64,000 nt of DNA from Escherichia phage Murica: sequence record NC_041871.1; one strand, written 5' to 3'. How positions within the stretch are numbered: the stretch's first letter is position 1; each line of letters opens with the position of its first letter. The translations under genes and the position numbers were made by a program. The notes beneath the pieces were generated by a model, which was not told the DNA's origin, made no database searches, and saw only the letters and a program-made list of their open reading frames with translations. Shown in pieces: positions 2,921 through 61,526 of the stretch.

Positions 2921-4105
2921 TTAAGCTTTAGCCAAAATGGCGCTAAACTCTTCACCAAACTCTTTTACAATCTTCATCAGGTTTGGGTATGCTTTGATCA
3001 GCTGAGCAACAATCTTGTCACGCCCTTTACCGATAAGCAAGGCATTTCCTAAGGCATTAGGTTTCATCATCGCCATAAAGACTGAGAATACAAAATCTCG
3101 GTTCTCGTCCTTGAAGTTTTCCCAAAGGAAATCGAGGAAGTTTGCCACGCAGCTGACAAGATCTTCGTCTGAGATACTTGCATTTTCCATCATATTGCGA
3201 ATAGCGATACAACCTTCAGATCCAAGAATCCACAAAATGTCTGGCTGCTTAGGACCTACGTATTCTTTGCAGCCACCTGCCATAATCCGACCGATTTCCG
3301 GTAAATTACGTTTCTTGGTGTGGTAAGTCCAGATCTCTACCGCTGCAGTGTGACCAATAGCACCTTGTAGAAGAACACGGGCCATAGCGTCAGAAATAAT
3401 ACCGCTGTCAAAATCGTGCAAGATGTCAGATGCAGCAACCCAAGATCGTGGTGTGGCAAAAGATGGACAATTAATCTCAGCCATAGCCTCATAATTATCA
3501 ATAGCTGATGGAACTCTTTTCAGATACCCAATTACAGAGGAGTGAACCCCGTTGAGGAATGCGTAGTCCTCAATAAACACCTCTGCATTGCTTGTAACCT
3601 CTACAATGATAAAACGGTTAGCCAGAGGGGCTTCGAGCGCCGAAAGAACCGCACCATCTGTAGAACGGTTACCCGCAGCCACAAAAACAGAACCCTTAGG
3701 GAATGCATAGGTGCCGCACTTGTGGTCAAGCATAATTTGCATTGCAACCTTTTGCAGGTAGTTATCTGCATGAGTGAGCTCATCCAGAAAGATAATTCCG
3801 CTCCAGTCAGGATCCGCAGGCCAAAATTCTGGAATTGCAAACACTGTACGTGTAGTTCCATCCGCTTCTACAGGGATAGGTAGCCCAGATAAGTCGGCAG
3901 GATCTTTATCTGACAGTCGCACGTCAACAAGGTTGTCATCTCGCTCACCGAACATATTATCAGCGATCTGCTTCATCACCTGGCTTTTACCCACACCCAT
4001 TGGTCCCAAAATTAGGACAGATCGGCTATGACGTTGGGCAAACTGAATAATAGCTGGCAACTCACGGACAGTGATTTGACCACTTTCGAATACGTTTCTT
4101 GACAT
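2921..4105 (-). CDS. AAA+ ATPase, MoxR/CbbQ/CobS-like (AAA_5-type)
   Basis: Walker A GPMGVGKS, Walker B IIFLDEL, sensor-1-like VAAGN. 394 aa. Confidence 0.7.
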   Translation of the reverse strand: MSRNVFESGQITVRELPAIIQFAQRHSRSVLILGPMGVGKSQVMKQIADNMFGERDDNLVDVRLSDKDPADLSGLPIPVEADGTTRTVFAIPEFWPADPDWSGIIFLDELTHADNYLQKVAMQIMLDHKCGTYAFPKGSVFVAAGNRSTDGAVLSALEAPLANRFIIVEVTSNAEVFIEDYAFLNGVHSSVIGYLKRVPSAIDNYEAMAEINCPSFATPRSWVAASDILHDFDSGIISDAMARVLLQGAIGHTAAVEIWTYHTKKRNLPEIGRIMAGGCKEYVGPKQPDILWILGSEGCIAIRNMMENASISDEDLVSCVANFLDFLWENFKDENRDFVFSVFMAMMKPNALGNALLIGKGRDKIVAQLIKAYPNLMKIVKEFGEEFSAILAKA

Positions 4106-4374
4106 TAGTAAAAGTCCTCTACTTGTGTGTAAGTGTTTTCAAAGTTTTCCAAAACAGATATCACATCGAATCTGTCAATATCATACGTGACTCTCCAGTT
4201 GTACGCAACCCTTTCTGCTGTTGCCTCTTCTGGCGCTAGTCGTCTGCTGGCATAAAAGAGTGTTGGAGTACACTTTCTTGCTTGCCCTCTAACTTTCCCA
4301 TAATAATATCTGTGAATATCTTTGTCAAAATTTAACTCTTTTTCTGCACGAAGTTCATATTGCTGGTATAACAT
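4105..4374 (-). CDS. hypothetical protein, 89 aa
   Basis: ORF in operon context; start overlaps the upstream stop (translational coupling). Confidence 0.4.
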   Translation of the reverse strand: MLYQQYELRAEKELNFDKDIHRYYYGKVRGQARKCTPTLFYASRRLAPEEATAERVAYNWRVTYDIDRFDVISVLENFENTYTQVEDFY

Positions 4375-5059: not shown

Positions 5060-5415
5060 TATTCTACCTCCTCTTCTTTTTCTTCGGCATTAGTTTCATG
5101 GCTACCCCACTCGGGAGTTTCCACCTCGATAGTAAACTCACGCACTACACGGTAATTGCCCATGAAGCGCTCTACTTCGTCAAGGCTTATGGAGAGGCCA
5201 TTGGCAACCAGGTCTGCAGCACCCTCTTCTACCAGGTAGTCCAGATTGGCTTCCAGAGCCTCAGGTTCAAACCCTGTCAATGCAATCAGATAACCTTCCC
5301 CTTCATCAGGGAGGACAATACAGCCCAATTGATTTTCTTTAAAAAGGCAGTGACCATCATTATTGATTGGGTGTTCATTGCAGTAAATAGCTGCACGATA
5401 AGTAACTTTAGACAT
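5059..5415 (-). CDS. hypothetical highly acidic protein (start trimmed to MSKVTYRA)
   Basis: Track ORF 5059-5436. ATG at 5413-5415 has GGAG 9 nt upstream and sits inside the 29-bp repeat. Strongly E/D-rich with a poly-Glu C-terminus. Confidence 0.45.
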   Translation of the reverse strand: MSKVTYRAAIYCNEHPINNDGHCLFKENQLGCIVLPDEGEGYLIALTGFEPEALEANLDYLVEEGAADLVANGLSISLDEVERFMGNYRVVREFTIEVETPEWGSHETNAEEKEEEVE

Positions 5416-5420
5416 CGGTA
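5392..5420 (-). repeat. 29-bp exact repeat, copy A (inverted relative to copy B at 7254-7282), spans the start codon
   Basis: Reverse complement of 5392-5420 equals 7254-7282 (TACCGATGTCTAAAGTTACTTATCGTGCA). Confidence 0.9.
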
Positions 5421-5428
5421 AGGTCTCC

Positions 5429-5707
5429 TTAGGCAATTGTCATTTTACATTCTTGAAATTTTAACACAAGACGGTGATTGTGTCTAGTGTCTAAAAAGAT
5501 TTTTTCAACCATCAGGCACACGGTATAACCGTCCATCTTGTTGACAACAAAATCTCCAGGATGAGGGAGGATGTCTCCCGGATTGGGGAAACATAGTCCA
5601 CTCAGAAAGGCATCGTCAGTGGTGGACTTAATAGATTTCCACACACTGTCTGCCTGAACATGTTCACCGACGTAATATACATTACCACATGCCTTCATCA
5701 TAGTCAA
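5429..5707 (-). CDS. hypothetical protein, 92 aa
   Basis: ORF in operon context. Confidence 0.4.
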   Translation of the reverse strand: MTMMKACGNVYYVGEHVQADSVWKSIKSTTDDAFLSGLCFPNPGDILPHPGDFVVNKMDGYTVCLMVEKIFLDTRHNHRLVLKFQECKMTIA

Positions 5708-6603
5708 ACCCTCGCATAAATTAAACTTGTATCAGTATACTTCTTTAATGGGTAAATATCCTGTCCATAGATGCAATCATTAAACACCTCATCTACCCAA
5801 AGGCTACACTTATATCCCATCATTTCTAAAACACCCATCTCTTCTTCGGTAAACTTATCACCGCTCTTGCAAGATGTCAATACCTCATTCTGAACTCTTG
5901 CTACCTCGAAGCGGTTATTGGCAATATCGCTATTGGCGATCAAATACTCACCTAGAGGGTGTGCGGCATTAAAGATGCACAGTGGACGGCTGACGTAATA
6001 GTCTCCAGGTGTATAAAAATTGTTGAGGTCTTTCACTAGAACATTCTTATCAGTCACTTCATTTATAACATCATGCATATCGCACATCTTTATATGTTTG
6101 AGGATTCCATCCCCCATCACAAAATAAAAACTTGCTGAGACACTTTCGGCATAGATCTTACTAGATCCGTTGTAGTTGTATTTTACTCGGATGCTAACGG
6201 GGGTTTTTCCTGTCGCGTTAGCCATCATCCAAAGAAATGGCAGCTCATACTTCTCCTCTGAGGAAACAAAAGGTGAGGTAGCCAGAGATCGAAAACCTCC
6301 AGAGAAGTTGAAAGTTACAGAACCGCTCCGGCGGTATGATACCGCGTATTCTACTTTTATATCGACATACCCATTGGAATAGGTGTGTCCTTCATTATCT
6401 AAATATGTCCACTTATCAGACCCAGATACCAATCTACGCTCAATAACCTTCATCACTATAGGAATTAATGGGTTGGTACAAACCGCTTTTGAAGTAGCTT
6501 TATCATCTAAAGCCTCGTAAATTGCAGAAAGGATGTCCCCAGCTGAAAGATTGGTTGTTATGTCCTGTTTCCACCGCGTACTAAAACTGTTAAGATTTGC
6601 CAT
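5704..6603 (-). CDS. hypothetical protein, 299 aa (first gene of the minus-strand accessory operon)
   Basis: ATG at 6601-6603 preceded by AGGAG; sits directly downstream of the minus-strand promoter. Confidence 0.5.
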   Translation of the reverse strand: MANLNSFSTRWKQDITTNLSAGDILSAIYEALDDKATSKAVCTNPLIPIVMKVIERRLVSGSDKWTYLDNEGHTYSNGYVDIKVEYAVSYRRSGSVTFNFSGGFRSLATSPFVSSEEKYELPFLWMMANATGKTPVSIRVKYNYNGSSKIYAESVSASFYFVMGDGILKHIKMCDMHDVINEVTDKNVLVKDLNNFYTPGDYYVSRPLCIFNAAHPLGEYLIANSDIANNRFEVARVQNEVLTSCKSGDKFTEEEMGVLEMMGYKCSLWVDEVFNDCIYGQDIYPLKKYTDTSLIYARV

Positions 6604-6643
6604 AAGTAAGTGCTCCTATGTTAGTTTTCTTTCGAATGGGTGC

Positions 6644-6672
6644 ACTATATTGTGGAGTTAGAGTAAAGTCAA
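6644..6672 (-). promoter_or_regulatory. sigma70-like promoter, TTGACT-N17-TATAGT, minus strand
   Basis: -35 is reverse complement of 6667-6672, -10 is reverse complement of 6644-6649, 17-nt spacer; about 40 nt upstream of the 6603 start. Confidence 0.55.
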
Positions 6673-6685
6673 CACGTTTTTGATG

Positions 6686-6714
6686 TTGACATCTGTTGAG
6701 ACAATTGATACGAT
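6686..6714 (+). promoter_or_regulatory. sigma70-like promoter, TTGACA-N17-TACGAT with TG extended -10, plus strand
   Basis: TTGACA at 6686-6691, 17-nt spacer, TACGAT at 6709-6714 preceded by TGA; upstream of ATG 6746. Confidence 0.5.
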
Positions 6715-6745
6715 TTCTTCACTTACAGAGCACGAGAGACGACTC

Positions 6746-7723
6746 ATGAATCTTGAAAAATATTATACACCAGAAGAGTTAGAGCGCTTGCTCAAAAAAT
6801 ATAGACGCAAACAGAATAACGCACGGAAACGAGATATAGAGTTCGACCTGTCATGGGAAGAATACCTCCTATTTGGTAAAAAACTTTTAGGAGATGGAGT
6901 ATGCGACTATACCCTTATACCTTTTGACATGCACACAGATGAAAACGGGCTGGGGAATCCTTTCTACCCATCCCTGGAGCGGATAGATGATGAAGGTCCT
7001 TATGCGGTTGATAACTGTTGTGTGGTGGGATTGAGATGCAACTCTCTAAAGGACTGTCTGGTAGATAAAAAGACTGCAGTCTTGATTAAAGACGAAACTG
7101 ATCGAAAAATTGTCCAGCAGATGATGCTCCACCTGAGCGAAGAGCGTATGGAGAAATTGAAAGGTGATTATACTTTTGAAGATTTCATCTTGCAATATGG
7201 AACGGAAGAGGATAAACTAGCACTCTTTGACGAAGAAGAGGAGGAAGATATGCTACCGATGTCTAAAGTTACTTATCGTGCACCCAAGAAGCACATTTCC
7301 GACATTGTAAACGAGCCTATCACAGAAGAGATTGAAGAAATGACGCAACAGGTGCATGAAGAGGAAAAAGAGACTCAGGAGGTCGAAGAGGAGCTTACAG
7401 AAGAGGTTCCTGCACTACCTGATGATGTTGAGATTGCCAAAGCTTACACTTTCTATTGTCAAACGTTCTACGATGTAGGTATGAAAGTTGATCTGTCGTT
7501 CAGCCAATTTAAGAGTTCGTATATTCGCAAATGCTGTGCTTTAACTGGTGAACGTCTTGGAGCTGGACTTAAACCCCTGTTGGTGACCGACTGGAATAAA
7601 GGTTTCACTAAAGGAAACTTTATGGTAGTATCTCCAATTATGGAGAAAGCTATGACAGATCTTATGAAGACCACCCGCATGACAATGACCGAGTTGGCAG
7701 GTATTTTCAAACACGTTAAATAA
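6746..7723 (+). CDS. hypothetical protein with an internally duplicated Cys-containing domain and an acidic linker
   Basis: Track ORF starts at TTG 6680 inside the promoter; re-called to ATG 6746 (GAGAG upstream). Both halves share the pattern D-x-x-F/L-x-x-S ... G-x-Y ... N-x-x-V. Contains copy B of the 29-bp repeat internally (…MLPMSKVTYRAP…). Confidence 0.5.
   Translation: MNLEKYYTPEELERLLKKYRRKQNNARKRDIEFDLSWEEYLLFGKKLLGDGVCDYTLIPFDMHTDENGLGNPFYPSLERIDDEGPYAVDNCCVVGLRCNSLKDCLVDKKTAVLIKDETDRKIVQQMMLHLSEERMEKLKGDYTFEDFILQYGTEEDKLALFDEEEEEDMLPMSKVTYRAPKKHISDIVNEPITEEIEEMTQQVHEEEKETQEVEEELTEEVPALPDDVEIAKAYTFYCQTFYDVGMKVDLSFSQFKSSYIRKCCALTGERLGAGLKPLLVTDWNKGFTKGNFMVVSPIMEKAMTDLMKTTRMTMTELAGIFKHVK
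7254..7282 (+). repeat. 29-bp exact repeat, copy B
   Basis: Identical to the reverse complement of 5392-5420; encodes the same peptide MSKVTYRA. Confidence 0.9.
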
Positions 7724-7727
7724 TGAC

Positions 7728-7744
7728 AGGGGCCAATGGCCCCT
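7728..7744 (+). promoter_or_regulatory. intergenic hairpin AGGGGCC-AAT-GGCCCCT
   Basis: Perfect 7-bp stem immediately after the TAA at 7721-7723 and before the RBS (GGAG) of the next gene. Confidence 0.4.
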
Positions 7745-7756
7745 TCTGGAGTTTTA

Positions 7757-9217
7757 ATGGATAGCAGAAGTTCAGAAATCATTGCCTCTCAGAAAGATGA
7801 TGCCCTGAGAATGTTGCAGGCTGCACGTATGTATCTCCTTGAAAAGCTGCCGTTTTATGGCACACTACTGTCAGGGTTGCAGTTCGTAGAAAACCACACA
7901 TGGTGCTCCACCATGGCAACCGACCATAAACGCATCTATTACAGTCCTGAGTTCATTATGGGATTGGCTGATGAACGCAAGGCTATTCTTAAGGCTTCTC
8001 TAACTGACGAGCAGTTTGAGATGGCTGAAGTTTTCTATTCCCCAAAATCTGTGAAAGAGGTGGCCTTCCTTCTGTCACATGAGGTGGGGCATATTATCTG
8101 TGATCACCTAGTCCGTGGTAAAAGCTTTGAGCCGGAACTGTTCAATATTGCTTGTGATCACGTTATCAACACAGGCCTTGTGGTTGACTTTAGCAAACCT
8201 CCTTGTGTTTTCTTCCCGAAGGGGAAAAGCACTACGTTCATGAAAGGTAAGCCTTTTGGCTTCTTAGCCAGCTGCTACTGCGACATGAAGTTTCATGGAT
8301 GGATTGCTGAGAACGTTTATGCAGTTCTTGATAAGCAAAGAGATCAGAATAACGGTAAAAGTAAGAACGGTAAAGGTGAGAACTCTCAAAGCGATAAGCG
8401 ACAAACCGATGATCACATGAGTGGGAACGGTGGCACCAGTGATAATCTTGGAAAGGCTATGGGGTATGATCAGCCACAACCTGTAATCAGCCAATCTGAT
8501 AAAGATCAGGCCATGCAGGACTCTGGTGATATGCTGGAGGCAGCAATGCAAGCGTCCGGAGGCCGTTGCCCTGAGGCGGTGCGTGAGTTTGTCAAGAACA
8601 GAGGTAAGCCTGTAATCAACTATATAGACATCATTAAGCAACGTATGTTGTCTAAAAGAAAGGCCGAACTGACCTACAGAAAACCTGGTCGCCGATCTGG
8701 GTCTTTGACCAGCACAATGCGAAAAGTTGGGGCTATAAACAAGAACCAGCACGTTATTGTTCCTGGTCGTAATCCGGAAAACACTATAGATATTGTGGTG
8801 GCTTTAGACGTTTCTGGCTCGATCTCTCAAAGAACTTTAAAGAAAATGTTCAATGAAATCACCGGATTGTGCAATCTGTATAAAGAGTTTAAGGTTACAA
8901 TGTTCTGTTGGTCAACTGAGGTTGGAGAGGTTAAAGTATACACTCGCGGCAACATAGACGAGATGGTCAACTATGAGGTCCACTCAACATGGGGCACAAC
9001 AGCTGCTTGCGTGTTCGAGTATCTGGATGCCAACATACCTAATGCAAAAGATGTCATCGTCCTGACCGACCTATACTTTGAGCATAACTTTGAACAAAAG
9101 GTTGTTGACAACAAGTGGAAAAAGTACGATACTCTATGGGTCCTCACTAAGGGGTATAATAAAAATTATATCCCGAGCTTTGGGAAAACTGTGGAATTAA
9201 TCGAGTACGCTAAGTAA
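7757..9217 (+). CDS. vWA-domain protein with N-terminal HExxH metallopeptidase-like domain (DUF2201-like, usual partner of MoxR ATPases)
   Basis: HExxH in LLSHEVGHIICDHL; MIDAS-like DxSxS in VALDVSGSIS. Start re-called from 7736 (inside the hairpin) to ATG 7757. Confidence 0.6.
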   Translation: MDSRSSEIIASQKDDALRMLQAARMYLLEKLPFYGTLLSGLQFVENHTWCSTMATDHKRIYYSPEFIMGLADERKAILKASLTDEQFEMAEVFYSPKSVKEVAFLLSHEVGHIICDHLVRGKSFEPELFNIACDHVINTGLVVDFSKPPCVFFPKGKSTTFMKGKPFGFLASCYCDMKFHGWIAENVYAVLDKQRDQNNGKSKNGKGENSQSDKRQTDDHMSGNGGTSDNLGKAMGYDQPQPVISQSDKDQAMQDSGDMLEAAMQASGGRCPEAVREFVKNRGKPVINYIDIIKQRMLSKRKAELTYRKPGRRSGSLTSTMRKVGAINKNQHVIVPGRNPENTIDIVVALDVSGSISQRTLKKMFNEITGLCNLYKEFKVTMFCWSTEVGEVKVYTRGNIDEMVNYEVHSTWGTTAACVFEYLDANIPNAKDVIVLTDLYFEHNFEQKVVDNKWKKYDTLWVLTKGYNKNYIPSFGKTVELIEYAK

Positions 9218-9232
9218 GAGAGGAGGTTATTT

Positions 9233-9496
9233 ATGGCAACAGAGTTAAAATTTGCATCAAACCGTAAAACTAAGAAGTATCTGTCCTCAGTAGCTCCAGG
9301 CACTGTGGTGATGTTTGTTGATGAACTTGGGGATGTGAATACAGCACTTGTTGTAAAATCACATCCTGCAAACATATATGTTGGGGTATTTGACCTGTTC
9401 AGAAAGGTGTTTGTAGAACTGCCTCACAGTTTGGTTGTTACAGAAATGGATGCCTGCATAGAAATTCTTGGCGAAGTTATGGTGGAGGAACAATAA
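9233..9496 (+). CDS. small protein, tandem paralog 1 of 4 (87 aa)
   Basis: AGGAGG RBS; shares MAT…K…GTVV…V.K…FDL…LP…VTE.D..I.ILGE with paralog 2. Confidence 0.5.
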   Translation: MATELKFASNRKTKKYLSSVAPGTVVMFVDELGDVNTALVVKSHPANIYVGVFDLFRKVFVELPHSLVVTEMDACIEILGEVMVEEQ

Positions 9497-9759
9497 TGGC
9501 TACCAGCATTGTATTCAATTCTAAGGTGAAGAACAAAAAGCGTGCAGACAGTTTTCCGTGTGGGACCGTGGTAAGTTGCGACGGAGACGGCATTCAAAAC
9601 ATAGTTATGATTGTCAAAACAGGAGAACATTGTGTGTGGGGGTTCGATTTAGAAAATAATGAGTTGTACGATCTGCCGCCAAACATGAAAGTTACAGAGC
9701 TTGACACCAAAATTACCATCCTTGGAGAGACAAGCTATTCAAAAGAAGGAGGAGAATAA
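9496..9759 (+). CDS. small protein, tandem paralog 2 of 4 (87 aa)
   Basis: Start overlaps the upstream stop; alignable to paralogs 1 and 3. Confidence 0.5.
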   Translation: MATSIVFNSKVKNKKRADSFPCGTVVSCDGDGIQNIVMIVKTGEHCVWGFDLENNELYDLPPNMKVTELDTKITILGETSYSKEGGE

Positions 9760-10022
9760 TGACCACAAAAATCACTATCGCAGAACCGAAAGCTAACACT
9801 CAGCCTATCGAAAAGTTTAAGTGCGGTGAGGTGGTAACATTCACACCAGATAATGAAGATGCTAAGATTTTCGCAATGGTCACAGCTGAGTGGATGTGTG
9901 ACAACACCACACAGGTTCTGCGTTTTGACACCTATCTTACCGATGAAATCAGGAACGACAAGATTGTGACTGGTGTGGATACTGAGATTGTTTTCTACAA
10001 GAGCTTTTTAGAGGGTTTCTGA
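9759..10022 (+). CDS. small protein, tandem paralog 3 of 4 (87 aa)
   Basis: Start overlaps the upstream stop; KCGEVVTF and RFDTYL regions align with paralog 2. Confidence 0.5.
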   Translation: MTTKITIAEPKANTQPIEKFKCGEVVTFTPDNEDAKIFAMVTAEWMCDNTTQVLRFDTYLTDEIRNDKIVTGVDTEIVFYKSFLEGF

Positions 10023-10023
10023 T

Positions 10024-10257
10024 ATGGCAAAAATTAGAAAATTATCTAGCAATCAGGTTGTGAAAGACTTCGAATCTGGAGAGATTCTTTATGTTCGTGA
10101 TGCAGATGACGAAGGTGAAGATCTCGTTATGTTGGTGGGGCACGCTGAGGACGGATGCATCCAAGCTGTTTTTCTTGAAACAGCTATGGTGCACTGGATA
10201 GAGCTGGACCTGAAAGCACGAAAACCTAAAGCAGAAATCCTGATTTACGAAGATTAA
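10024..10257 (+). CDS. small protein, tandem paralog 4 of 4 (77 aa, more divergent)
   Basis: Same size class and position in the array; weaker similarity (GEILYV…LVMLVG…AVFLE). Confidence 0.4.
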   Translation: MAKIRKLSSNQVVKDFESGEILYVRDADDEGEDLVMLVGHAEDGCIQAVFLETAMVHWIELDLKARKPKAEILIYED

Positions 10258-10273
10258 CAAAAAGGAGATAGCC

Positions 10274-10723
10274 GTGTTGAGCAAACGTGAATGCGACAGC
10301 ATTAGCCTGAATTCTTATAAGAAACAATGGTTTGGGGTGGAAGTTTGCCGACTGCGGCTAGGCTCCTACCTGAACTTCGTTTATTATGAGAGTGACAGTC
10401 GTATCGTTTCTTATGAAGTGTTCTACACTAAGAACACATTCGAACTGCGCCGTAAAGTAGATGGCGGGAGAACTACCACCCAGAATAATTGGGAAACTAT
10501 TCTGCCTCCAGATGTTATAGGAAGTCCCCTGAATGTATCTGAAGATGAAAATCTTATGGTTCATGCTATGATGGGACTTGACAGCTTAGAGCTGGCAATC
10601 TATGATATGTCCATCGAAGCAGTTAAGCTGGACTACATCGAAAACACTTTAGAGGAAGGTATCAAGAAGTTTCTCAGTGAGAAATTAAAAGACCACTTTC
10701 ATAAGGAGCTATATCTGTTATGA
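10274..10723 (+). CDS. hypothetical protein, 149 aa
   Basis: GTG start with AAGGAG 8 nt upstream. Confidence 0.4.
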   Translation: MLSKRECDSISLNSYKKQWFGVEVCRLRLGSYLNFVYYESDSRIVSYEVFYTKNTFELRRKVDGGRTTTQNNWETILPPDVIGSPLNVSEDENLMVHAMMGLDSLELAIYDMSIEAVKLDYIENTLEEGIKKFLSEKLKDHFHKELYLL

Positions 10724-10965
10724 AGACCCGTAAAGAACGTAACAAAATTTTACCTGGAGCTCTCGAACACCTGATGAAGTGCAGATCTATTTGGCACTCT
10801 GCCAAGGAAGGGCAGAAGGTGGTTGTGGTTAGTGACAATACCAACCCGTTTGGAGATTATACCACCATGATGGCCCCATATGTCCGTGATGGCGTTGTAG
10901 AAGTGGTCCCTTACAACGGTTTGCATGAACGGCACTTTGAAAGCACTTTGCTAGTGGAGCTATAG
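10720..10965 (+). CDS. hypothetical protein, 81 aa
   Basis: ORF coupled to the upstream gene (ATGA overlap). Confidence 0.4.
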   Translation: MKTRKERNKILPGALEHLMKCRSIWHSAKEGQKVVVVSDNTNPFGDYTTMMAPYVRDGVVEVVPYNGLHERHFESTLLVEL

Positions 10966-10967
10966 TC

Positions 10968-11534
10968 ATGGCGGTCAATGTGGCTTACAACACAGGAAAG
11001 CTTGACAGAGACATTGGGTGTCTTGTCCTTTCAGATACAGAAGAGTATTGGGGTTATGGGTTGCTGTCAGACCCACACCCGAGCAACCTTGTATCAACAG
11101 TGCTATACCGCTACGACCCTGTGCCAACGGTACACGACAAAGACATTCACGACCTTCGGATCAAGTGTCTGGAAGATCTGCTGAACAATGGTTGCAACGA
11201 TCTGCGGGTAGCCAAGGAGAAGCTTACAAACATTCACAAAGAGGAAGTGATGAGTACCCTCAGTAAAAGATCAGTGCACAAAAAGATGATGCTGAACTTT
11301 GCAATGGGTATCTACATGGATGGGTATAAGGGAGGGGATCCGATCCTCAAGCTTCGCTGCCCGACACTGTGGGAAAGAGTGGTTGACAGTAAGGACGGTA
11401 CTGCCCTGCTCGAACTCCACACTGCAGGTTGGATTTGGCGGTATGTAGACGGATACCCTCTGTGGGCATGTGGACCTGGGGAATTTGTTGACAGACCTAG
11501 CGCGGTGGTGGACTTACTATTGCAGTTTGAATAA
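10968..11534 (+). CDS. hypothetical protein, 188 aa
   Basis: ORF in operon context. Confidence 0.45.
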   Translation: MAVNVAYNTGKLDRDIGCLVLSDTEEYWGYGLLSDPHPSNLVSTVLYRYDPVPTVHDKDIHDLRIKCLEDLLNNGCNDLRVAKEKLTNIHKEEVMSTLSKRSVHKKMMLNFAMGIYMDGYKGGDPILKLRCPTLWERVVDSKDGTALLELHTAGWIWRYVDGYPLWACGPGEFVDRPSAVVDLLLQFE

Positions 11535-11591
11535 AAAGGTGAGTTATAAGGTATTCATACACCTACCAACAATACAACAGGAGAGACTAAG

Positions 11592-11867
11592 ATGACGAAA
11601 GAAGAGGCCGACGTATTAGATTTTGCACTAGAGGCTACGCAGGAGGCTTTGGTGTTAGCTTGGAAAATGAACCAGCGTGCTGCAGAATGCAACCGCCGCA
11701 TCAATGAGATCTTGGGCATGTCTATGTATGATTTCACCATGCATGCCGGAGAGATTCCTGAATTAACTGCCGAGATGAATGATCTTGACGATAAAATTAA
11801 TATCATTCTGAAGACAGCGGAAACAACTCACCAAACCGCCCGTAAATTTATCAACGAGAAGGTGTGA
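11592..11867 (+). CDS. hypothetical protein, 91 aa
   Basis: ORF with GGAGAG RBS. Confidence 0.45.
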   Translation: MTKEEADVLDFALEATQEALVLAWKMNQRAAECNRRINEILGMSMYDFTMHAGEIPELTAEMNDLDDKINIILKTAETTHQTARKFINEKV

Positions 11868-12334
11868 ATATGGACTACAGCTACTGCGGGGAAGAAGTCC
11901 CTTTTAATTACAGCAATCTTACCACGAGCAATCCATATGAGACTCGCCACGGCACGCACATCATTGCCATCGACTTTGATGGAACGTTTAATGCGAGCCC
12001 TTTCATCTTCTCCCGCCTGATCAGGGATCTGAAGAAGGAGGGGTGGACAGTCTACCTTGTGACTTTCCGATTCATTACTCAAGACAATGTAGACATTGAG
12101 TATTGGCGCAAGGAGCTCGATGTTGGTGTGTTCTACACAGGTGGTGTTCAGAAGGCAGCCTACCTGGCGCAGTTTGATATCTACCCAGATATCTGGATTG
12201 ATGATTCTCCGGCATGTATTCCGGCTAAGAATCAGTTAGAGTTTGCAATGAAGGAGATTGAGTATAAGTCTGAGGCTAAGCGGAACGGATGGCCCTTTAT
12301 TATTGAAGATTACCCAGATCCTGAACCGGAGTAA
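11864..12334 (+). CDS. HAD-superfamily phosphatase (candidate nucleotidase)
   Basis: HAD motif I IIAIDFDGT (DxDxT) and motif IV IWIDDS. Confidence 0.55.
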   Translation: MNMDYSYCGEEVPFNYSNLTTSNPYETRHGTHIIAIDFDGTFNASPFIFSRLIRDLKKEGWTVYLVTFRFITQDNVDIEYWRKELDVGVFYTGGVQKAAYLAQFDIYPDIWIDDSPACIPAKNQLEFAMKEIEYKSEAKRNGWPFIIEDYPDPEPE

Positions 12335-12339
12335 GAGCC

Positions 12340-12510
12340 ATGAGGCGAAGATATCATTACCTGATGTGGAAGTTATATCAAAATGCTGCCAAAGCCTATC
12401 ATACCATGTTTGGCAATGACGATCACTACATCATGTTACATCTCACCGCTATTGAGCATCACAATGAGTGGATTCATGCAATCGTGGCAGGTGATAAAGA
12501 CTTTAAGTAA
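12340..12510 (+). CDS. small hypothetical protein, 56 aa, not in the supplied ORF track
   Basis: ATG 12340 with GGAG 8 nt upstream, open to TAA at 12508-12510; translated by hand as MRRRYHYLMWKLYQNAAKAYHTMFGNDDHYIMLHLTAIEHHNEWIHAIVAGDKDFK. Confidence 0.3.
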   Translation: MRRRYHYLMWKLYQNAAKAYHTMFGNDDHYIMLHLTAIEHHNEWIHAIVAGDKDFK

Positions 12511-12560
12511 AGTATACCTCAAAAACGTATAGTGCGGCTTTCTAGACGGAGACTGATTAA

Positions 12561-12941
12561 ATGTGCAAGTGTAAATCCTATAATTGGAAAGTGAAAGGTG
12601 CCAAGCATCCAAGTGTTATCGTTGATGTGCCTAAAAATCTTCGTGACGGCAAAAAACGTGTGTGCCTTGATAAGTGTATGGCTAAGCCTATCATGAGTTT
12701 GTGGGCAGCAGGTTTGAAAACGCTAAACTGCTGCTGTGGTCATAACAAAGATATTCCAAGCATCATTATCCCAGAAGATGCAGATCCTAAAGCTTATGCC
12801 AAAATACTGACCCGCTATCCCAGCACCTTCCTGATCGGAAAATGGTGTCACGATGAACTCCAATGGTGGATAGCCTATGGTAGTATAGGCACTACTTTTG
12901 GCTTCCCAGCTTTGTCAGAGCGCTATGTCAAAGTGTCATAA
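12561..12941 (+). CDS. hypothetical Cys-rich protein, 126 aa
   Basis: ORF with multiple Cys clusters (CKCK, CLDKC, CCCGH). Confidence 0.45.
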   Translation: MCKCKSYNWKVKGAKHPSVIVDVPKNLRDGKKRVCLDKCMAKPIMSLWAAGLKTLNCCCGHNKDIPSIIIPEDADPKAYAKILTRYPSTFLIGKWCHDELQWWIAYGSIGTTFGFPALSERYVKVS

Positions 12942-12950
12942 TAGAATTTA

Positions 12951-12968
12951 AGGCCTCAAACGAGGCCT
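12951..12968 (+). terminator. hairpin AGGCCTC-AAAC-GAGGCCT after the 12561-12941 gene
   Basis: Perfect 7-bp stem; the downstream T-tract is weak. Confidence 0.35.
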
Positions 12969-13045
12969 GTGCCTTCATAAATTTCTCCACCCTGTGCGAT
13001 TGCCTTCCTGAATAAAATACCCTCTCAGATCTCTTAAAATTAGGC

Positions 13046-13074
13046 TTGACACCACCACCAGATCTATATATAAT
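13046..13074 (+). promoter_or_regulatory. consensus sigma70 promoter TTGACA-N17-TATAAT
   Basis: TTGACA 13046-13051, exactly 17-nt spacer, TATAAT 13069-13074; RBS GAGGAG and ATG 13103 follow. Confidence 0.7.
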
Positions 13075-13102
13075 TCTCACCAACCAAACAGAGGAGATCG
13101 TC

Positions 13103-13510
13103 ATGGATAATCTTGCAGATGTAAATGTCGAAATTGTTAAACTAAAGTTCTTGGGCTTTCGAGACCCTTATTCTTTAACAGCCATACTAATGGATACTCA
13201 CTTCACACCAGGTAAAGAGTACACTGCCTTCCGTTATATTTGCGGAGATCACGAATCAGCTTACAGTGTGAATACAAACCTCGGCGAGGGATATTTCATC
13301 AGAGATATCACAGATCACTTGTGGGGTATGTGGGAGTTGGTGGAGGAAGAGAATAAATCCCTTCCTAAAGAGATTTGGGTGCACACCTTCCACACAGGTA
13401 AGTTTGGAGGTACGGAACATAAGTCTATCCACTATGATGAAGAAAGTGCCATCAAACAACAAGCTGTGCTTGGTGGATCTATAGAAAAATTTGTTAAATG
13501 CGAGGACTGA
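13103..13510 (+). CDS. hypothetical protein (start re-called to MDNLADVN)
   Basis: Track ORF starts at TTG 13046, which is the -35 hexamer; ATG 13103 has GAGGAG 6 nt upstream. Confidence 0.5.
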   Translation: MDNLADVNVEIVKLKFLGFRDPYSLTAILMDTHFTPGKEYTAFRYICGDHESAYSVNTNLGEGYFIRDITDHLWGMWELVEEENKSLPKEIWVHTFHTGKFGGTEHKSIHYDEESAIKQQAVLGGSIEKFVKCED

Positions 13511-13513
13511 GAA

Positions 13514-13714
13514 ATGGCTGATTTTTGTAAAGATTGCTCTGAAGAGTTGTTTGGCTTTGACTGCAAAGATTTGGAAGGTCTGATCACTGAGGATCAGTGG
13601 AAGGAAGGCTATGCAGCACCTGCTATTTGTGAAGGTTGTGGCTATACCTATGTTGACCATAAAGGTAAGCGCGTCAAGCCGTCTGAAGATGGGGCATGTT
13701 GGGAGTATTACTAA
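13514..13714 (+). CDS. small zinc-ribbon-like protein, 66 aa
   Basis: Two CxxC pairs (CKDC … CEGC). Confidence 0.45.
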   Translation: MADFCKDCSEELFGFDCKDLEGLITEDQWKEGYAAPAICEGCGYTYVDHKGKRVKPSEDGACWEYY

Positions 13715-13720
13715 CTATAA

Positions 13721-13748
13721 AAAGAAAGGGGCCGTTTGGCCCCTTTTT
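13721..13748. terminator. bidirectional rho-independent terminator where plus and minus transcription converge
   Basis: GGGGCC-GTTT-GGCCCC stem flanked by an A-tract upstream and a T-tract downstream. Confidence 0.7.
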
Positions 13749-13761
13749 ATTTACCCCCTTG

Positions 13762-16700
13762 TTAACGAGAAAAGGTTGCGTAGGCTTCTAGACGATACTG
13801 CTGGTCACCAGGGAACATAACACCTATAGAGGCTGTCCCTAGAATCCTGCCTTCCTTTCCAGACTCCATTCTGAACCCTACCCATCCTGAACTCCTTGCA
13901 GCCTCGATGTTGTCGCTATACCCGAAAGTGGCAAGATCGTCAACACCAGCCCCAAACAGCAACTGAAGCTGACTTCTCGGAAGCCCTATAATTTCAGGAA
14001 TATACGCACCAAAGTACACCATCTGCCCTACCTTAGGACCGCTGCCGTACTCCATCGGTTTGCTTGTAGAGAAAGTCTTCATACCAGAAGTACCTGCCGG
14101 ATTAGGGTATGCCCCGTTTGTTGCTGTACCTATCCACATTCTCCACTGTGGTGCCATCTGTTTGACAGTAAAAGATGTTGAAGACGTTTTGCGCCCTGCA
14201 TCATCTGTAACTACAAACTTTATGGTGACATTCCCAGTAGCTTTAAATGTTACCAGTCCTGTGGTGGCATCCACTGTTGCAATGTTGGTATTACTACTTT
14301 CCCAAGTCTTTCTAATCCCGGATACGTTGGAAGGGGTAATAGAAGGTTCCTGCATCTGCAGTTTACCACCAACAATCCCTATGCCGTTGCCCGGATTATA
14401 CAGCACACCAACCTCGTCTATAATGTTCCCTGCTTTGAGACTATACTTCCTTGAGAAGTTGTAGGTTCCGTTATAAGTGTGTGTCCCTGAGAAGGTGACA
14501 TCTGCCTTCCCGTAAGAGATGCAAACCAAAGCATACTTCCTGTCAGGCAACGTTTCTCCAGTCTCTGGGTGAGTTTTACCTACCTGGAACACACTCGGGT
14601 CAGTAGAGTCGTGACTATCACTAACGGAGCTTGGACCGCCCATCAACTGTGACAAACAATTCCTTACCCATGTCCAGTTATTATCGCTGGAGAAGTCCAC
14701 AGTCAAATCAAACACAACCCACTCATTTGGCTTCCACACAGGTGTTGTAATGGACTTGCCTACACCACCTCCTTGGAGTGTTGCCGACTGTTCGGTGATC
14801 AGGGCCGCATAGGCCAGAGTTCCTAAACTCAGAGTCTGGCTTGCTGTCCTCACTACCTTAGAATCAGCATCTGTGAAGTTGTTGATGATTTGGAATGTGC
14901 CATAAGTGTTTTTACAGGTAATTCTGGCGTTCAGCGTGTCAATCTTCCTCACATCTGCCATAGCAGTGTTAGACACAGAGAAGTCAGAAGCTTTAGCTGA
15001 GTTTGCCGCAACAGCAGGATCAACGTTAAGAGTTGCGTTGAACTGACAGGCAGGGGTAACCAGCAGCTTGTTATCACCTATTTGCTTCCATGAAATACTT
15101 TGGACAGGTAGATTCCATTTAATACCTGAGAAAACTTTAGCAACCCTTGGCCCCAAAGCTCCAGTCCTGTTGTCTTTACAGCACATAGACATGGTGATCG
15201 TTGACGGAGTTGCCTGACCAAATAATTGCTGTGCTTTTGCAGAGGACATAGTGTAGAAATTGTCCTTAACAAACTCATCAGCGGCTAAAGATCCGTCAGC
15301 CCTCCACCATTGAACCTGATACCCTGTTTTGTCCCAACCACCGACCTGCTTCAGGTCTTCCCAGGAGATTTCCAGATCCCCAGTGGCAGGGTTGATTGCA
15401 GCAGTTCCCGGTGTTCCGGGTGACCACAATGGAATATCGAACCACGCTGGTTTAACCGACTGCACTGCGCTGGGACCTATTGCGGCAGCAAGTTGCTGGC
15501 CCATCAATACGCGAGCATCTTTCACCAGACCCCACTCGATCATAGACCCAGAGTAACCTTCTTTCTTGTAGGCTGAGGATCCGTTCAAATGGATGAGTCG
15601 GCTTGTGCCAAAGTTATGTGCTCCACCACCGTTGTCGTCTGCAAAATTGGTTATGATTCTATCCCTGATATTTTTCCATGCCCTGCCCCCAATCTCATAG
15701 TCATGGTCATAACATCTTTGCAGTGTTGTCCAGCAAATGATCGCCATCCTTCTACCATCGCTGAATCCAAAGGCCTGATCGTTAAGCTCTCTCCACAAGT
15801 AGCAGTTAGTGGTCCACATGGCCCTATGAATGTTAAACCAGTTTATAGATTTGGCTGAGTTGTCCCACTGAGTCCCAGGTAATTCAGGCCATACTGCATT
15901 AACCAGCATGTCTTCTGTTCCTGCATCAACCAAGAACCCTCTTACCTTCTTACCCATGCCTACCCTATCTTTTGCAATCCAGCTGCCAAACAATCTCAGT
16001 TTTGGACCGTAGACAACATCTTCCGGATGCTCAAAAGAAACATATTTTAGGTATATTGTAGGGTCACCATAGGTGCCATCACAAACAGCTTTGTGCATGT
16101 TCTCGCCAAGGTCTAGACGAAGTCCTGTTACAACTTTAGACGTGTCGGTGAATTTGTCTGTTAAATCAAACTCATACCACCACCAACCTGCACCCAACAA
16201 TACTTTCTTACAACGCTGTGCGTCTGTATCAGATATTCTCTTATCCCCTGCAAAAGGTGAGTCAGCAAACTGATAGTGCAGAGCGATCTCAAAAGGATGT
16301 GTGGATGTCCCGTTTTCTGCAAGAACTTGTTTACCTATCAGGTCGCACTTAATGATCATCACAACACGTTTGTATCCGTTTGTTACCGGAATTTGCATGG
16401 ACATGGATGTCCCATCCATGTTTGATCTCAGTGCAGTCATGATGATATAAGGGTCAACTGCATTGCCCAAAGTCTCAGGACCAGGGATTATCTTATACTT
16501 CTTGACCTGCCCCATGATGTAGTCACTTGCGTAAGTTGCCTCATTCAAGCAAGATCCCCCACCAGGTAACTCACCAGGTCCCCAGAAAAATGCGCCGTAA
16601 CAGTTGTAGAACCACTTGTTAGGATCGTATTTATTCTTGAAGGTCTGAACCTCGTTGGCCTGTTTTGTCAAGAAAACCTGCGTGTCTGTGAAGATTGCAG

Positions 16701-60397: not shown

Positions 60398-60667
60398 TTA
60401 TCGAGGCACTCGGTGGATGATTCTAACAGTAACTGCGTTTTCATTCATCAAGTATGCATCTACATCTCTGTAAATATAAAACTTCTGCTCACTATCAACA
60501 ACACAAGCTACCGCCCCTTCAGAGTTGTCTTCAAAAAAGACCACCACTGCATCGCAGCTGAGTTCATGATATGACTCTCGAAGATTTACAGCCAGAGGAT
60601 TGAAATCGTCACGAAAATCTACGGTATGGGTTGGATTTACACGCTCTACAATTTTAAGTGTATACAT
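60398..60667 (-). CDS. hypothetical protein (start trimmed to MYTLKIVE), 90 aa
   Basis: Track ORF extends to 60757, overlapping tRNA-Pro; ATG 60667 has AAGGA upstream. Confidence 0.4.
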   Translation of the reverse strand: MYTLKIVERVNPTHTVDFRDDFNPLAVNLRESYHELSCDAVVVFFEDNSEGAVACVVDSEQKFYIYRDVDAYLMNENAVTVRIIHRVPR

Positions 60668-60713: not shown

Positions 60714-60790
60714 TGGTCTCCACGGAGTGATTCGAACACTCGACCTCCTGATCCCAAATCAGGCGCTCTACCAAGCTGAGCTACGCGGAG
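60714..60790 (-). tRNA. tRNA-Pro (anticodon UGG)
   Basis: Hand-folded cloverleaf: 7-bp acceptor, D arm GCTC/GAGC, anticodon loop TTTGGGA, T loop TTCGAAT, encoded CCA. Confidence 0.7.
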
Positions 60791-60801
60791 TATTTATTAT
60801 T

Positions 60802-60876
60802 TGGTGGCCCTGGGTGGAATTGAACCACCGTCTGGCGATTATGAGTCGCTTGCTTGAACCTTCCAGCTACAGGGCC
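60802..60876 (-). tRNA. tRNA-Met or Ile2 (anticodon CAU)
   Basis: Perfect 7-bp acceptor GGCCCTG/CAGGGCC, anticodon loop CTCATAA, T arm GGTGG-TTCAATT-CCACC, encoded CCA; G1-C72 pair argues against an initiator. Confidence 0.65.
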
Positions 60877-60877
60877 T

Positions 60878-60953
60878 TGGTGCTGATGGCAGGACTTGAA
60901 CCTACAACCTATTGATTACAAATCAATTGCACTACCGATTGTGCTACATCAGC
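60878..60953 (-). tRNA. tRNA-Thr (anticodon UGU)
   Basis: Perfect acceptor GCTGATG/CATCAGC, anticodon stem ATTGA/TCAAT with loop TTTGTAA, T loop TTCAAGT, encoded CCA. Confidence 0.7.
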
Positions 60954-60958
60954 AAAAA

Positions 60959-61057
60959 GGTGCTAGGTGATGGAATCGAACCACCTATGTATTCAACGAC
61001 TACCTCGTCTATTTTCAGGATTAAAAATCCTCGCCCTTGCCAAAGGGCTTACCTAGC
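60959..61057 (-). tRNA. atypical tRNA-like element (99 nt): tRNA acceptor, D and T arms, but no canonical anticodon arm
   Basis: Perfect 7-bp acceptor GCTAGGT/ACCTAGC, D arm GCCC/GGGC, T arm GGTGG-TTCGATT-CCATC. The intervening 47 nt form two small hairpins (AGGAT-TTTTT-ATCCT and ACGA-GGTAG-TCGT). A Lys (UUU) reading needs a mismatched stem and a 29-nt variable region. Confidence 0.4.
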
Positions 61058-61154
61058 TCAGTATGTTGACCATGTTGCTAGTCGGCGATGACGACTGTAA
61101 CATTTGATAATCCGGTTCTGCTTCCGGCTTTCGCTTAATTACAAGGTCAACAAT

Positions 61155-61246
61155 GTGGCGGAGAGTAATGGAATCGAACCATCATCGAGTCATCCTCAAC
61201 GGGACGGTTTTCAAGACCGCTTGAGCACCATTGCTCCCTACCCTCC
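61155..61246 (-). tRNA. tRNA-Ser (anticodon UGA), type II
   Basis: 92 nt, acceptor GGAGGGT/ACTCTCC, anticodon stem GCGGT/ACCGT with loop CTTGAAA, long variable arm, T loop TTCGATT, encoded CCA. A TATAAT -10 lies 7 nt upstream. Confidence 0.65.
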
Positions 61247-61360
61247 TTTATAAATTATACTGATAATGACACTGATTTTCGAGCAGTTAGTGACTAGTAT
61301 AAACGACGATAAATATCAATGCCATTATCTGTATTATTTATGCATCTAAAAATATAAATT

Positions 61361-61447
61361 TGGTGGGGAGTGGTGGAGTCGAACCACCCGAGTCGCAATG
61401 ACAATAGATTTACAGTCTACACCGCTACCTCTACGGGATAACTCCCC
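61361..61447 (-). tRNA. tRNA-Tyr (anticodon GUA), type II
   Basis: 87 nt, acceptor GGGGAGT/ACTCCCC, anticodon loop CTGTAAA, T arm GGTGG-TTCGACT-CCACC, encoded CCA. Confidence 0.65.
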
Positions 61448-61451
61448 AATT

Positions 61452-61526
61452 TGGCACCCCGTACTGGACTCGAACCAGTGTCAACGGCTTAGAAGGCCGC
61501 TGCTTTATCCACTAAGCTAACAGGGC
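61452..61526 (-). tRNA. tRNA-Arg (anticodon UCU)
   Basis: Acceptor with two G-U pairs, D arm GCTT/AAGC, anticodon stem GCGGC/GCCGT with loop CTTCTAA, T arm ACTGG-TTCGAGT-CCAGT, encoded CCA. Confidence 0.6.

Follow-up and report, generated by a model that had tools for sequence, protein, structure and literature searches.

Results

Genomic setting of the array

The DNA analysed here is a window of 64,000 nucleotides, numbered from its first letter, which carries an array of four small consecutive genes designated A, B, C and D. The 3-kb stretch around the array matched 116 phage records and was 99.9% identical to several Vequintavirus genomes, including Shigella phage CM1, HdK5, nimi and CarlMeissner. 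In Shigella phage CM1 the array lies at the same coordinates as in the window, and the annotation lists its ORFs as hypothetical proteins (CM1_00013 to CM1_00016). Judged by this sequence identity, the source of the window is an rV5-like E. coli myophage of the genus Vequintavirus. Sixteen GenBank MG0656xx records carry the name 'Campylobacter phage', with C. jejuni given as host, and over window positions 8500-11500 they share at least 97% identity with E. coli Vequintavirus genomes, which makes their host and name labels look doubtful. The features of the locus are as follows.

6686-6714, plus strand: promoter-like site of sigma-70 type, TTGACA-17-TACGAT with an extended -10 (promoter scan)
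7736-9217, plus strand: gene for a DUF2201_N putative metallopeptidase plus DUF2201 VWA-like protein (rV5 gp012/013; Pfam E 4e-28 and 2e-11)
9233-9496, plus strand: gene A, 87 aa, pI 5.0, phrog_10698, first half of the variable cassette
9248-9747, plus strand: exchangeable cassette, the A+B coding sequence minus its first 15 nt and last 11 nt
9496-9759, plus strand: gene B, 87 aa, pI 4.9, phrog_10698, second half of the variable cassette
9759-10022, plus strand: gene C, 87 aa, pI 4.5, phrog_12861, remote A/B paralogue, strictly conserved in the genus
10024-10257, plus strand: gene D, 77 aa, pI 4.6, phrog_12046, probable and most divergent member, strictly conserved in the genus
10274-10723, plus strand: gp017 homologue, 149 aa, phrog_6790, downstream neighbour

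The site at 6686-6714 corresponds to P11, which is annotated in rV5 at the homologous position, at the head of the gene 11-26 unit. The rightward unit that starts at this P11-like site comprises, in order, genes for a Srd-like anti-sigma protein and the DUF2201 metallopeptidase/VWA protein, then the array and more small genes; a strong terminator closes it near 13725-13746. A gap of 15 nt separates the stop of the DUF2201 gene from the array, which belongs to the same operon, and a scan found no internal promoter or terminator above chance within the array. In rV5, genes 11-26 form one transcription unit that is separate from the late structural unit (genes 27-81), a T4-late-like motif was reported for the late genes, and no late-transcription factors were identified (PMC3606486). 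The original prediction placed the array in an early region, and this is plausible given the sigma-70-driven 11-26 unit and the adjoining Srd-like anti-sigma gene; from promoter type and gene order, expression of the array is probably early.

Several side observations concern the neighbouring genes. A MoxR-type AAA+ ATPase is encoded at about 2922-4106 on the minus strand, in the leftward unit and divergent from the DUF2201/VWA gene (CM1 annotation); this phage-borne MoxR-VWA pair is conserved across Vequintavirinae genera. The rV5 reference carries two overlapping CDSs, gp012 and gp013 (1257-2718 in the extracted rV5 locus), where the window and most relatives have an intact 493-aa ORF, probably reflecting a frameshift or sequencing error in the rV5 reference. 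PHROG-derived labels call the Srd-like (6680-7723) and DUF2201 proteins 'HNH endonuclease' and the gp017 homologue 'tail protein'. Pfam supports none of these labels: it assigns DUF2201_N and a VWA-like domain to the DUF2201 protein and has no match for the gp017 homologue.

Gene structure and translation signals

As originally predicted, the array consists of four consecutive small ORFs of 77-87 aa, all on the plus strand. The A/B and B/C junctions are TAATG overlaps, the C/D gap is a single base, and a GGAGG-like Shine-Dalgarno sequence precedes each of the four starts. For B and C, this sequence falls within the Glu/Gly-rich C-terminal codons of the preceding gene. The C-terminal tails of A (…VEEQ; window 9470-9500) and B (…EGGE; window 9735-9762), and also that of X (…MEEE; rV5 locus 2960-2995), the single gene that replaces A and B in rV5, are each encoded by the GGAGG of the next gene. 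Since the tails are specified by the next gene's Shine-Dalgarno sequence and the TAATG overlaps, their sequence is constrained by translational coupling and not by protein function alone.

The proteins encoded by A-D are small (8.7-10 kDa) and acidic, with pI values of 4.5-5.0 and net charges between -4 and -8, and no hydrophobic segment was found in any of them. The array contains no meaningful direct or inverted repeats, and no repeat at the nucleotide level links the four genes, indicating that the paralogy is ancient. No Rfam family was detected within 6000-14000.

Relatedness of the four proteins

A and B are 38% identical, with a Smith-Waterman score of 103 against 23.5±3.9 for shuffles (z=20). 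Pairwise scores were marginal for B-C (z=4.5), C-D (z=3.7) and B-D (z=3.0), and those for A-C and A-D did not rise above shuffles (z 1.2-1.4). The A/B-family profile was enlarged with orthologues and the rV5 variant X, and the resulting HMM scored C at 20.2 bits, a value reached by 0/1000 shuffles, D at 7.4 bits (1/1000 shuffles) and a D variant at 12.9 bits (0/1000). Profile-profile comparison of the A/B and C families with hhalign gave a probability of 90.9% (E 1.1e-6) over 79 collinear columns. Direct hhalign comparisons of A/B with D and of C with D were weak (P 0.049 and 0.031, probabilities 1-2%). A combined A/B/C profile matched the D family with a probability of 70.3% (E 4e-5) over 67 collinear columns, covering nearly the whole protein. 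In column-shuffle controls, the A/B versus C score of 34.9 compared with a null of 10.0±1.9, and the A/B/C versus D score of 28.4 with a null of 9.8±2.1; in both cases 0/100 shuffles reached the observed score.

These matches were also ranked against a set of 100 ORFs, 55-130 aa in length, drawn from across the window. After self matches, the A/B HMM placed C and then D first, the C HMM placed B and then D first, and the D HMM placed C and then B first. The family does not extend to two neighbours, the 81-aa ORF (10720-10965) and the gp017 homologue of 149 aa; the 81-aa ORF scored nothing with the A/B HMM. The best match of the A/B and C HMMs outside the array was an 89-aa β-rich ORF at 60398-60667 on the minus strand, at about 5 bits, which is not significant; it may be another small barrel. 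This ORF adjoins a cluster of seven tRNA genes predicted by ARAGORN (60714-61526, minus strand), one of which, at 60959-61057, is an unusual 'tRNA-???' of 99 nt whose anticodon has four bases (atcc).

PHROGs divides the four proteins among three families: A and B belong to 10698, C to 12861 and D to 12046, and C also has a weak match to 10698. This division, the A-C and A-D pairwise scores within the shuffle range, and the 1-2% probabilities of the direct A/B-D and C-D comparisons would all be expected if only A and B were true paralogues, and C and D were unrelated β-rich lookalikes produced by convergent composition, size and fold class; the structural neighbours of D described below can be read in the same way. 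Such convergence is difficult to reconcile with the full-length match of A/B to C (E 1e-6) and the match of A/B/C to D (E 4e-5), both far above their column-shuffle nulls, with the mutual first ranks among 100 small ORFs, or with the shared size, adjacency and coupling of the genes and the similar strand order predicted in the B and D models. We consider it unlikely. At the level of sequence, the paralogy of A, B and C is secure, and D is a probable fourth family member, based on the transitive A/B/C profile match and an all-β D model.

The claim that the genes are paralogous, with similarity beyond composition-matched shuffles, therefore held, directly for A-B and through profiles (0/100 column shuffles) for C and D, and the picture of a local expansion of one small-protein family is supported. 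The proposed order of divergence, with A and B closest and D most distant, was likewise borne out. The conserved motifs that had been described apply to A, B and C, and only partly to D, which has MAK and SGEIL and lacks V-T-E-x-D; within the C-G-T/E-V-V motif, the Cys is present only in B and C.

Predicted fold

An AlphaFold2 model of B, built from the A/B-family alignment, had a pLDDT of 79.6 and a pTM of 0.64. It is all-β with eight strands (including 25-30, 33-42, 47-51, 56-60 and 70-76) and takes the form of an SH3-like barrel with an N-terminal hairpin. The AlphaFold model of D was built from D orthologues alone and is therefore independent of A, B and C. It is all-β with six strands, one at the N-terminus and five (21-26, 32-41, 45-50, 55-60 and 70-76) whose positions match those of the final five strands of B, at a pLDDT of only 66.6.

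A structure search of BFVD with the B model returned A (TM 0.86) and X, followed by uncharacterised 70-90-aa phage proteins (SU7, 172-1, LAMP, N4 gp21 and others). The D model retrieved its own orthologue, then several of B's neighbours (SU7, LAMP, N4 gp21). A ranked 14th and X 40th, and D's neighbours included many unrelated small phage barrels whose scores were similar to that of A. The five-stranded, strongly bent antiparallel β-barrel that characterises the SH3-like fold class is present in the models, and the features of Sm/Hfq-like ring formers, namely an N-terminal α-helix followed by five β-strands and the Sm1/Sm2 motifs, were not found. None of the four proteins matched the Pfam Tudor, KOW or SH3 models at E<=1, and a sequence search of the PDB, queried with the A/B profile, gave no match below E=0.99. 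On the basis of the B and D models, the array proteins are predicted to be SH3-like (Tudor/KOW-like) β-barrels with an N-terminal β-hairpin.

SH3-like barrels are frequent in phage head and tail accessory proteins, and the gene downstream of the array bears the PHROGs label 'tail protein', so that the four proteins might serve in the virion or its assembly, for example as decoration or connector-like proteins or as chaperones. The array, however, lies outside the late structural unit (genes 27-81) and is served by sigma-70-type promoters and not by the T4-late-like motif, and gp14-16 are not listed in the main text of the virion mass-spectrometry section for rV5 (PMC3606486). We regard a structural role as extremely unlikely.

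Conservation and selection

C and D are each single-copy, with 90-100% protein identity, in 116/116 GenBank Vequintavirus records. Their dN/dS values are 0.02 and 0.04, respectively, at a dS of about 0.63, and in phage Aya the synonymous divergence of C is saturated while protein identity is still 93%. For A and B, dN/dS is 0.15-0.24, indicating purifying selection. A diverged lineage, recovered from E. coli assemblies and sequencing runs (loci L004-L006), encodes A' with 56% identity to A, B' with 64% identity to B, C at 98% and D at 95%, and its neighbouring proteins are only 55-82% identical to those of the window. The presence of A' and B' in this lineage shows that the A/B duplication predates the split. 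The lower dS of C and D compared with their neighbours could partly reflect recent exchange, and not constraint alone. Locus L004 also contains, at 5226-5470, an intact homologue of the 81-aa ORF at window 10720-10965 (69% identity), which is uncalled in the source assemblies.

Two alternative cassettes in the first slot

The window is homologous to rV5 up to 9247, 15 nt inside A, and again from 9748 onwards, 11 nt ahead of the ATG of C. Between these exact breakpoints, a 500-bp two-gene cassette (A+B) alternates with a 230-bp one-gene cassette (X). A+B is found in 42/116 Vequintavirus records, with 93-100% nucleotide identity, and X (rV5 gp014, 85 aa) replaces it in the other 74/116, including the type phage rV5. 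Among the BASEL phages, CarlMeissner, EmilHeitz, EduardKellenberger, HeinrichReichert, WalterGehring, DrSchubert, MaxTheCat and RudolfGeigy have the A+B type, and JeffSchatz, JohannBauhin and MaxBurger the X type. At the protein level X shares about 40% identity with each of A and B, and no nucleotide similarity between X and either gene was detectable. Within one cassette type, most copies are at least 99% identical. Only three cassette forms (A+B, the diverged A'+B', and X) occur in the 116 records and the metagenomic loci.

Cassette type does not track the similarity of the flanks. Over the 3-kb downstream flank, rV5, which carries X, is 97.3% identical to the window, whereas many A+B-type phages are only 96.0-96.6% identical. 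This comparison, a ranking of identities and not a phylogeny, suggests that the cassette was exchanged by recombination.

Along its length X (rV5 locus 2734-2991) is nearer to A in alignment columns 23-45 (11/22 vs 7/20 identities) and nearer to B in columns 46-66 (8/21 vs 4/21 identities). These segment-wise identities point towards an A/B chimera, and the numbers are too small to carry that assignment. From its sequence, X could be an old A/B chimera formed by unequal crossover, or an ancestor-like single gene. An X-like gene, P0042 (83 aa, about 60% identical to X), occurs alone at 1355-1606 of the metagenomic contig ERZ15185088 NODE_15642, flanked by a gene of 217 aa and a Cys-rich one of 143 aa, and neither C nor D lies beside it; positions 2070-2307 of this contig are 84% identical to T4-like Krischvirus phages.

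The array had originally been described as fast-evolving. This does not hold for C and D, with their dN/dS of 0.02-0.04 and at least 90% identity in 116/116 records, and it holds for the first slot only as cassette turnover (42/116), with no rapid point evolution. The proposed comparison of copy number across related phages gave one copy each of C and D in 116/116 and a first slot of two genes (42) or one (74).

The same data bear on an anti-defence role, in which each paralogue would inhibit a different immune system and the family would diversify under arms-race pressure. The dimorphic first slot in genomes otherwise 95-99% identical, with a type that does not track the flanks, fits this proposal, as does the X-like gene found alone in an unrelated neighbourhood, in the manner of accessory genes. 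The proteins are small, acidic and phage-restricted, and the BASEL paper does report phage-to-phage differences, only minor ones, in restriction-modification sensitivity among these phages. On the other hand, C and D are invariant core genes that show no arms-race signature (dN/dS 0.02-0.04), the existence of only three cassette forms does not amount to open-ended diversification, and no protein matched any described family in Pfam, PHROGs or NCBIfam. In the BASEL paper, moreover, the Vequintavirinae are described as showing exceptional susceptibility to restriction-modification systems. The cassette is where an anti-defence role is mainly conceivable; as an account of the whole array such a role is a minority prospect, which we would put at well short of likely.

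Distribution outside the genus

Word-indexed searches of 5.8 billion proteins returned near-identical Vequintavirus proteins only. Apart from three repeat-protein artefacts, an exhaustive HMM search covering 1.84 billion representatives yielded only A, a B variant and one X-like protein. A scan of IMG/VR recovered two loci, both of the X-C-D type, and when B, C and D were compared by tblastn with 50,697 phage genomes, no match fell outside Vequintavirus. These searches indicate a family that is essentially genus-restricted at the sequence level.

The array is absent in Avunavirus, Mydovirus, Seunavirus and Certrevirus (Av-05, Seu621, SSE121 and CR3) on both sides of the DUF2201 gene, and the small neighbouring ORFs in these four sister genera score <8 bits against the family HMMs. 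All four keep the DUF2201 gene (33-47% identity), with the gp017 homologue directly after it, and Avunavirus, Mydovirus and Seunavirus also keep the Srd-like gene. The position of the gp017 homologue directly after DUF2201 indicates that the array is an insertion specific to Vequintavirus.

The sister genera also inform a possible functional link with the neighbouring gene. The array begins 15 nt after the DUF2201 gene in the same operon, and the MoxR ATPase gene lies nearby on the opposite strand, so the barrels might serve as adaptors or clients (accessory subunits or substrates) of a phage MoxR-ATPase/DUF2201-VWA system. Retention of the DUF2201 gene in four genera that lack the array makes an obligate partnership with MoxR/VWA unlikely, and we consider this link quite improbable.

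Discussion

Pfam and NCBIfam gave no informative family for the array proteins, and their PHROGs matches are all of unknown function. There was no match to described host-takeover or anti-defence families in PHROGs, Pfam or NCBIfam, and nothing was found in the Vequintavirus literature; the rV5 genome paper (PMC3606486), the BASEL paper and the anti-defence literature make no mention of the array genes (rV5 gp14-16). We propose that the array is a Vequintavirus-specific cluster of four ancient paralogues, SH3-like barrels that are made together early in infection and act as binding proteins, a reading to which we give about an even chance. In the proposed model, host RNA polymerase would transcribe the array from the sigma-70-type promoter of the gene 11-26 unit, and translation coupled through the TAATG overlaps, with a Shine-Dalgarno sequence for each gene, would yield the four proteins together, probably early. 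Their most likely action would be stoichiometric binding to host or phage macromolecules, serving host takeover or regulation. The lack of catalytic motifs, together with a fold that is used almost everywhere for binding, argues for this mode of action in preference to an enzymatic activity. C and D would be the invariant part of the array, with a function needed by every member of the genus, and the first slot would be an exchangeable module, A+B or X, swapped between otherwise near-identical genomes. Such swapping fits a specificity or arms-race component.

These results collapse three PHROG families of 'unknown function' into one family of small, predicted SH3-like barrels, a link that is not recorded in PHROGs. 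The natural swap of A+B for X beside a conserved core of C and D occurs in near-isogenic, widely used phages (BASEL, rV5 biocontrol), so that the function can be tested directly. Should C and D turn out to be essential, they would become candidates for the regulatory or host-takeover machinery of Vequintavirus; otherwise, the array is one more uncharacterised small-gene cluster of a kind common in large lytic phages.

Comparison with known systems

The closest relatives of the array proteins are the same genes from other Vequintavirus genomes, represented by phrog_10698 (A, B), phrog_12861 (C) and phrog_12046 (D), which are matched over their full length with E 1e-41 to 1e-62. In predicted fold, the array proteins resemble SH3-like small β-barrels (Tudor, KOW, the ribosomal uL2 SH3-like domain), without membership of these families at the sequence level (Pfam). 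They differ from these domains in having an extra N-terminal β-hairpin and in being free-standing at 77-87 aa, and not parts of larger proteins.

One of these domains, the RNA-polymerase-binding, Tudor-like C-terminal domain of UvrD/PcrA, scores no better than dozens of unrelated Tudor/SH3 domains and is a lead only. CarD and the Mfd RID are further RNA-polymerase-binding Tudor-like domains. Kinship of fold with such domains, together with the neighbouring anti-sigma gene, suggests a hypothesis of a transcription switch, in which the four barrels would form a hetero-oligomer that docks on host RNA polymerase and, with the Srd-like anti-sigma protein, constitutes the early-to-late switch of rV5-like phages, with C and D as its constant core and either A+B or X as a replaceable adaptor. 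This hypothesis, drawn by analogy, is speculative and very unlikely to be correct as a whole.

Among proteins of comparable size, SU7 A0A8F3C9H7, LAMP A0A2I6PD60 and N4 gp21 A0MZB1 (70-90 aa) are neighbours of the B and D models in predicted fold (TM 0.5-0.65). They differ in sequence, with 11-20% identity, no detectable sequence homology and no known function, and none of these barrels is known as an array, unlike A-D.

As a locus, the array is of a well-known kind, the small early gene clusters of phages. Small early host-takeover gene clusters are found in large lytic phages, as in the T4 early ORFs, the SPO1 host-takeover module and the T5 pre-early genes. Like these, the array comprises small, tightly packed ORFs with host-type promoters, is phage-specific and is mosaic between relatives. 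It differs from the T4, SPO1 and T5 clusters in consisting of four paralogues of one predicted fold, two of which are as conserved as core genes.
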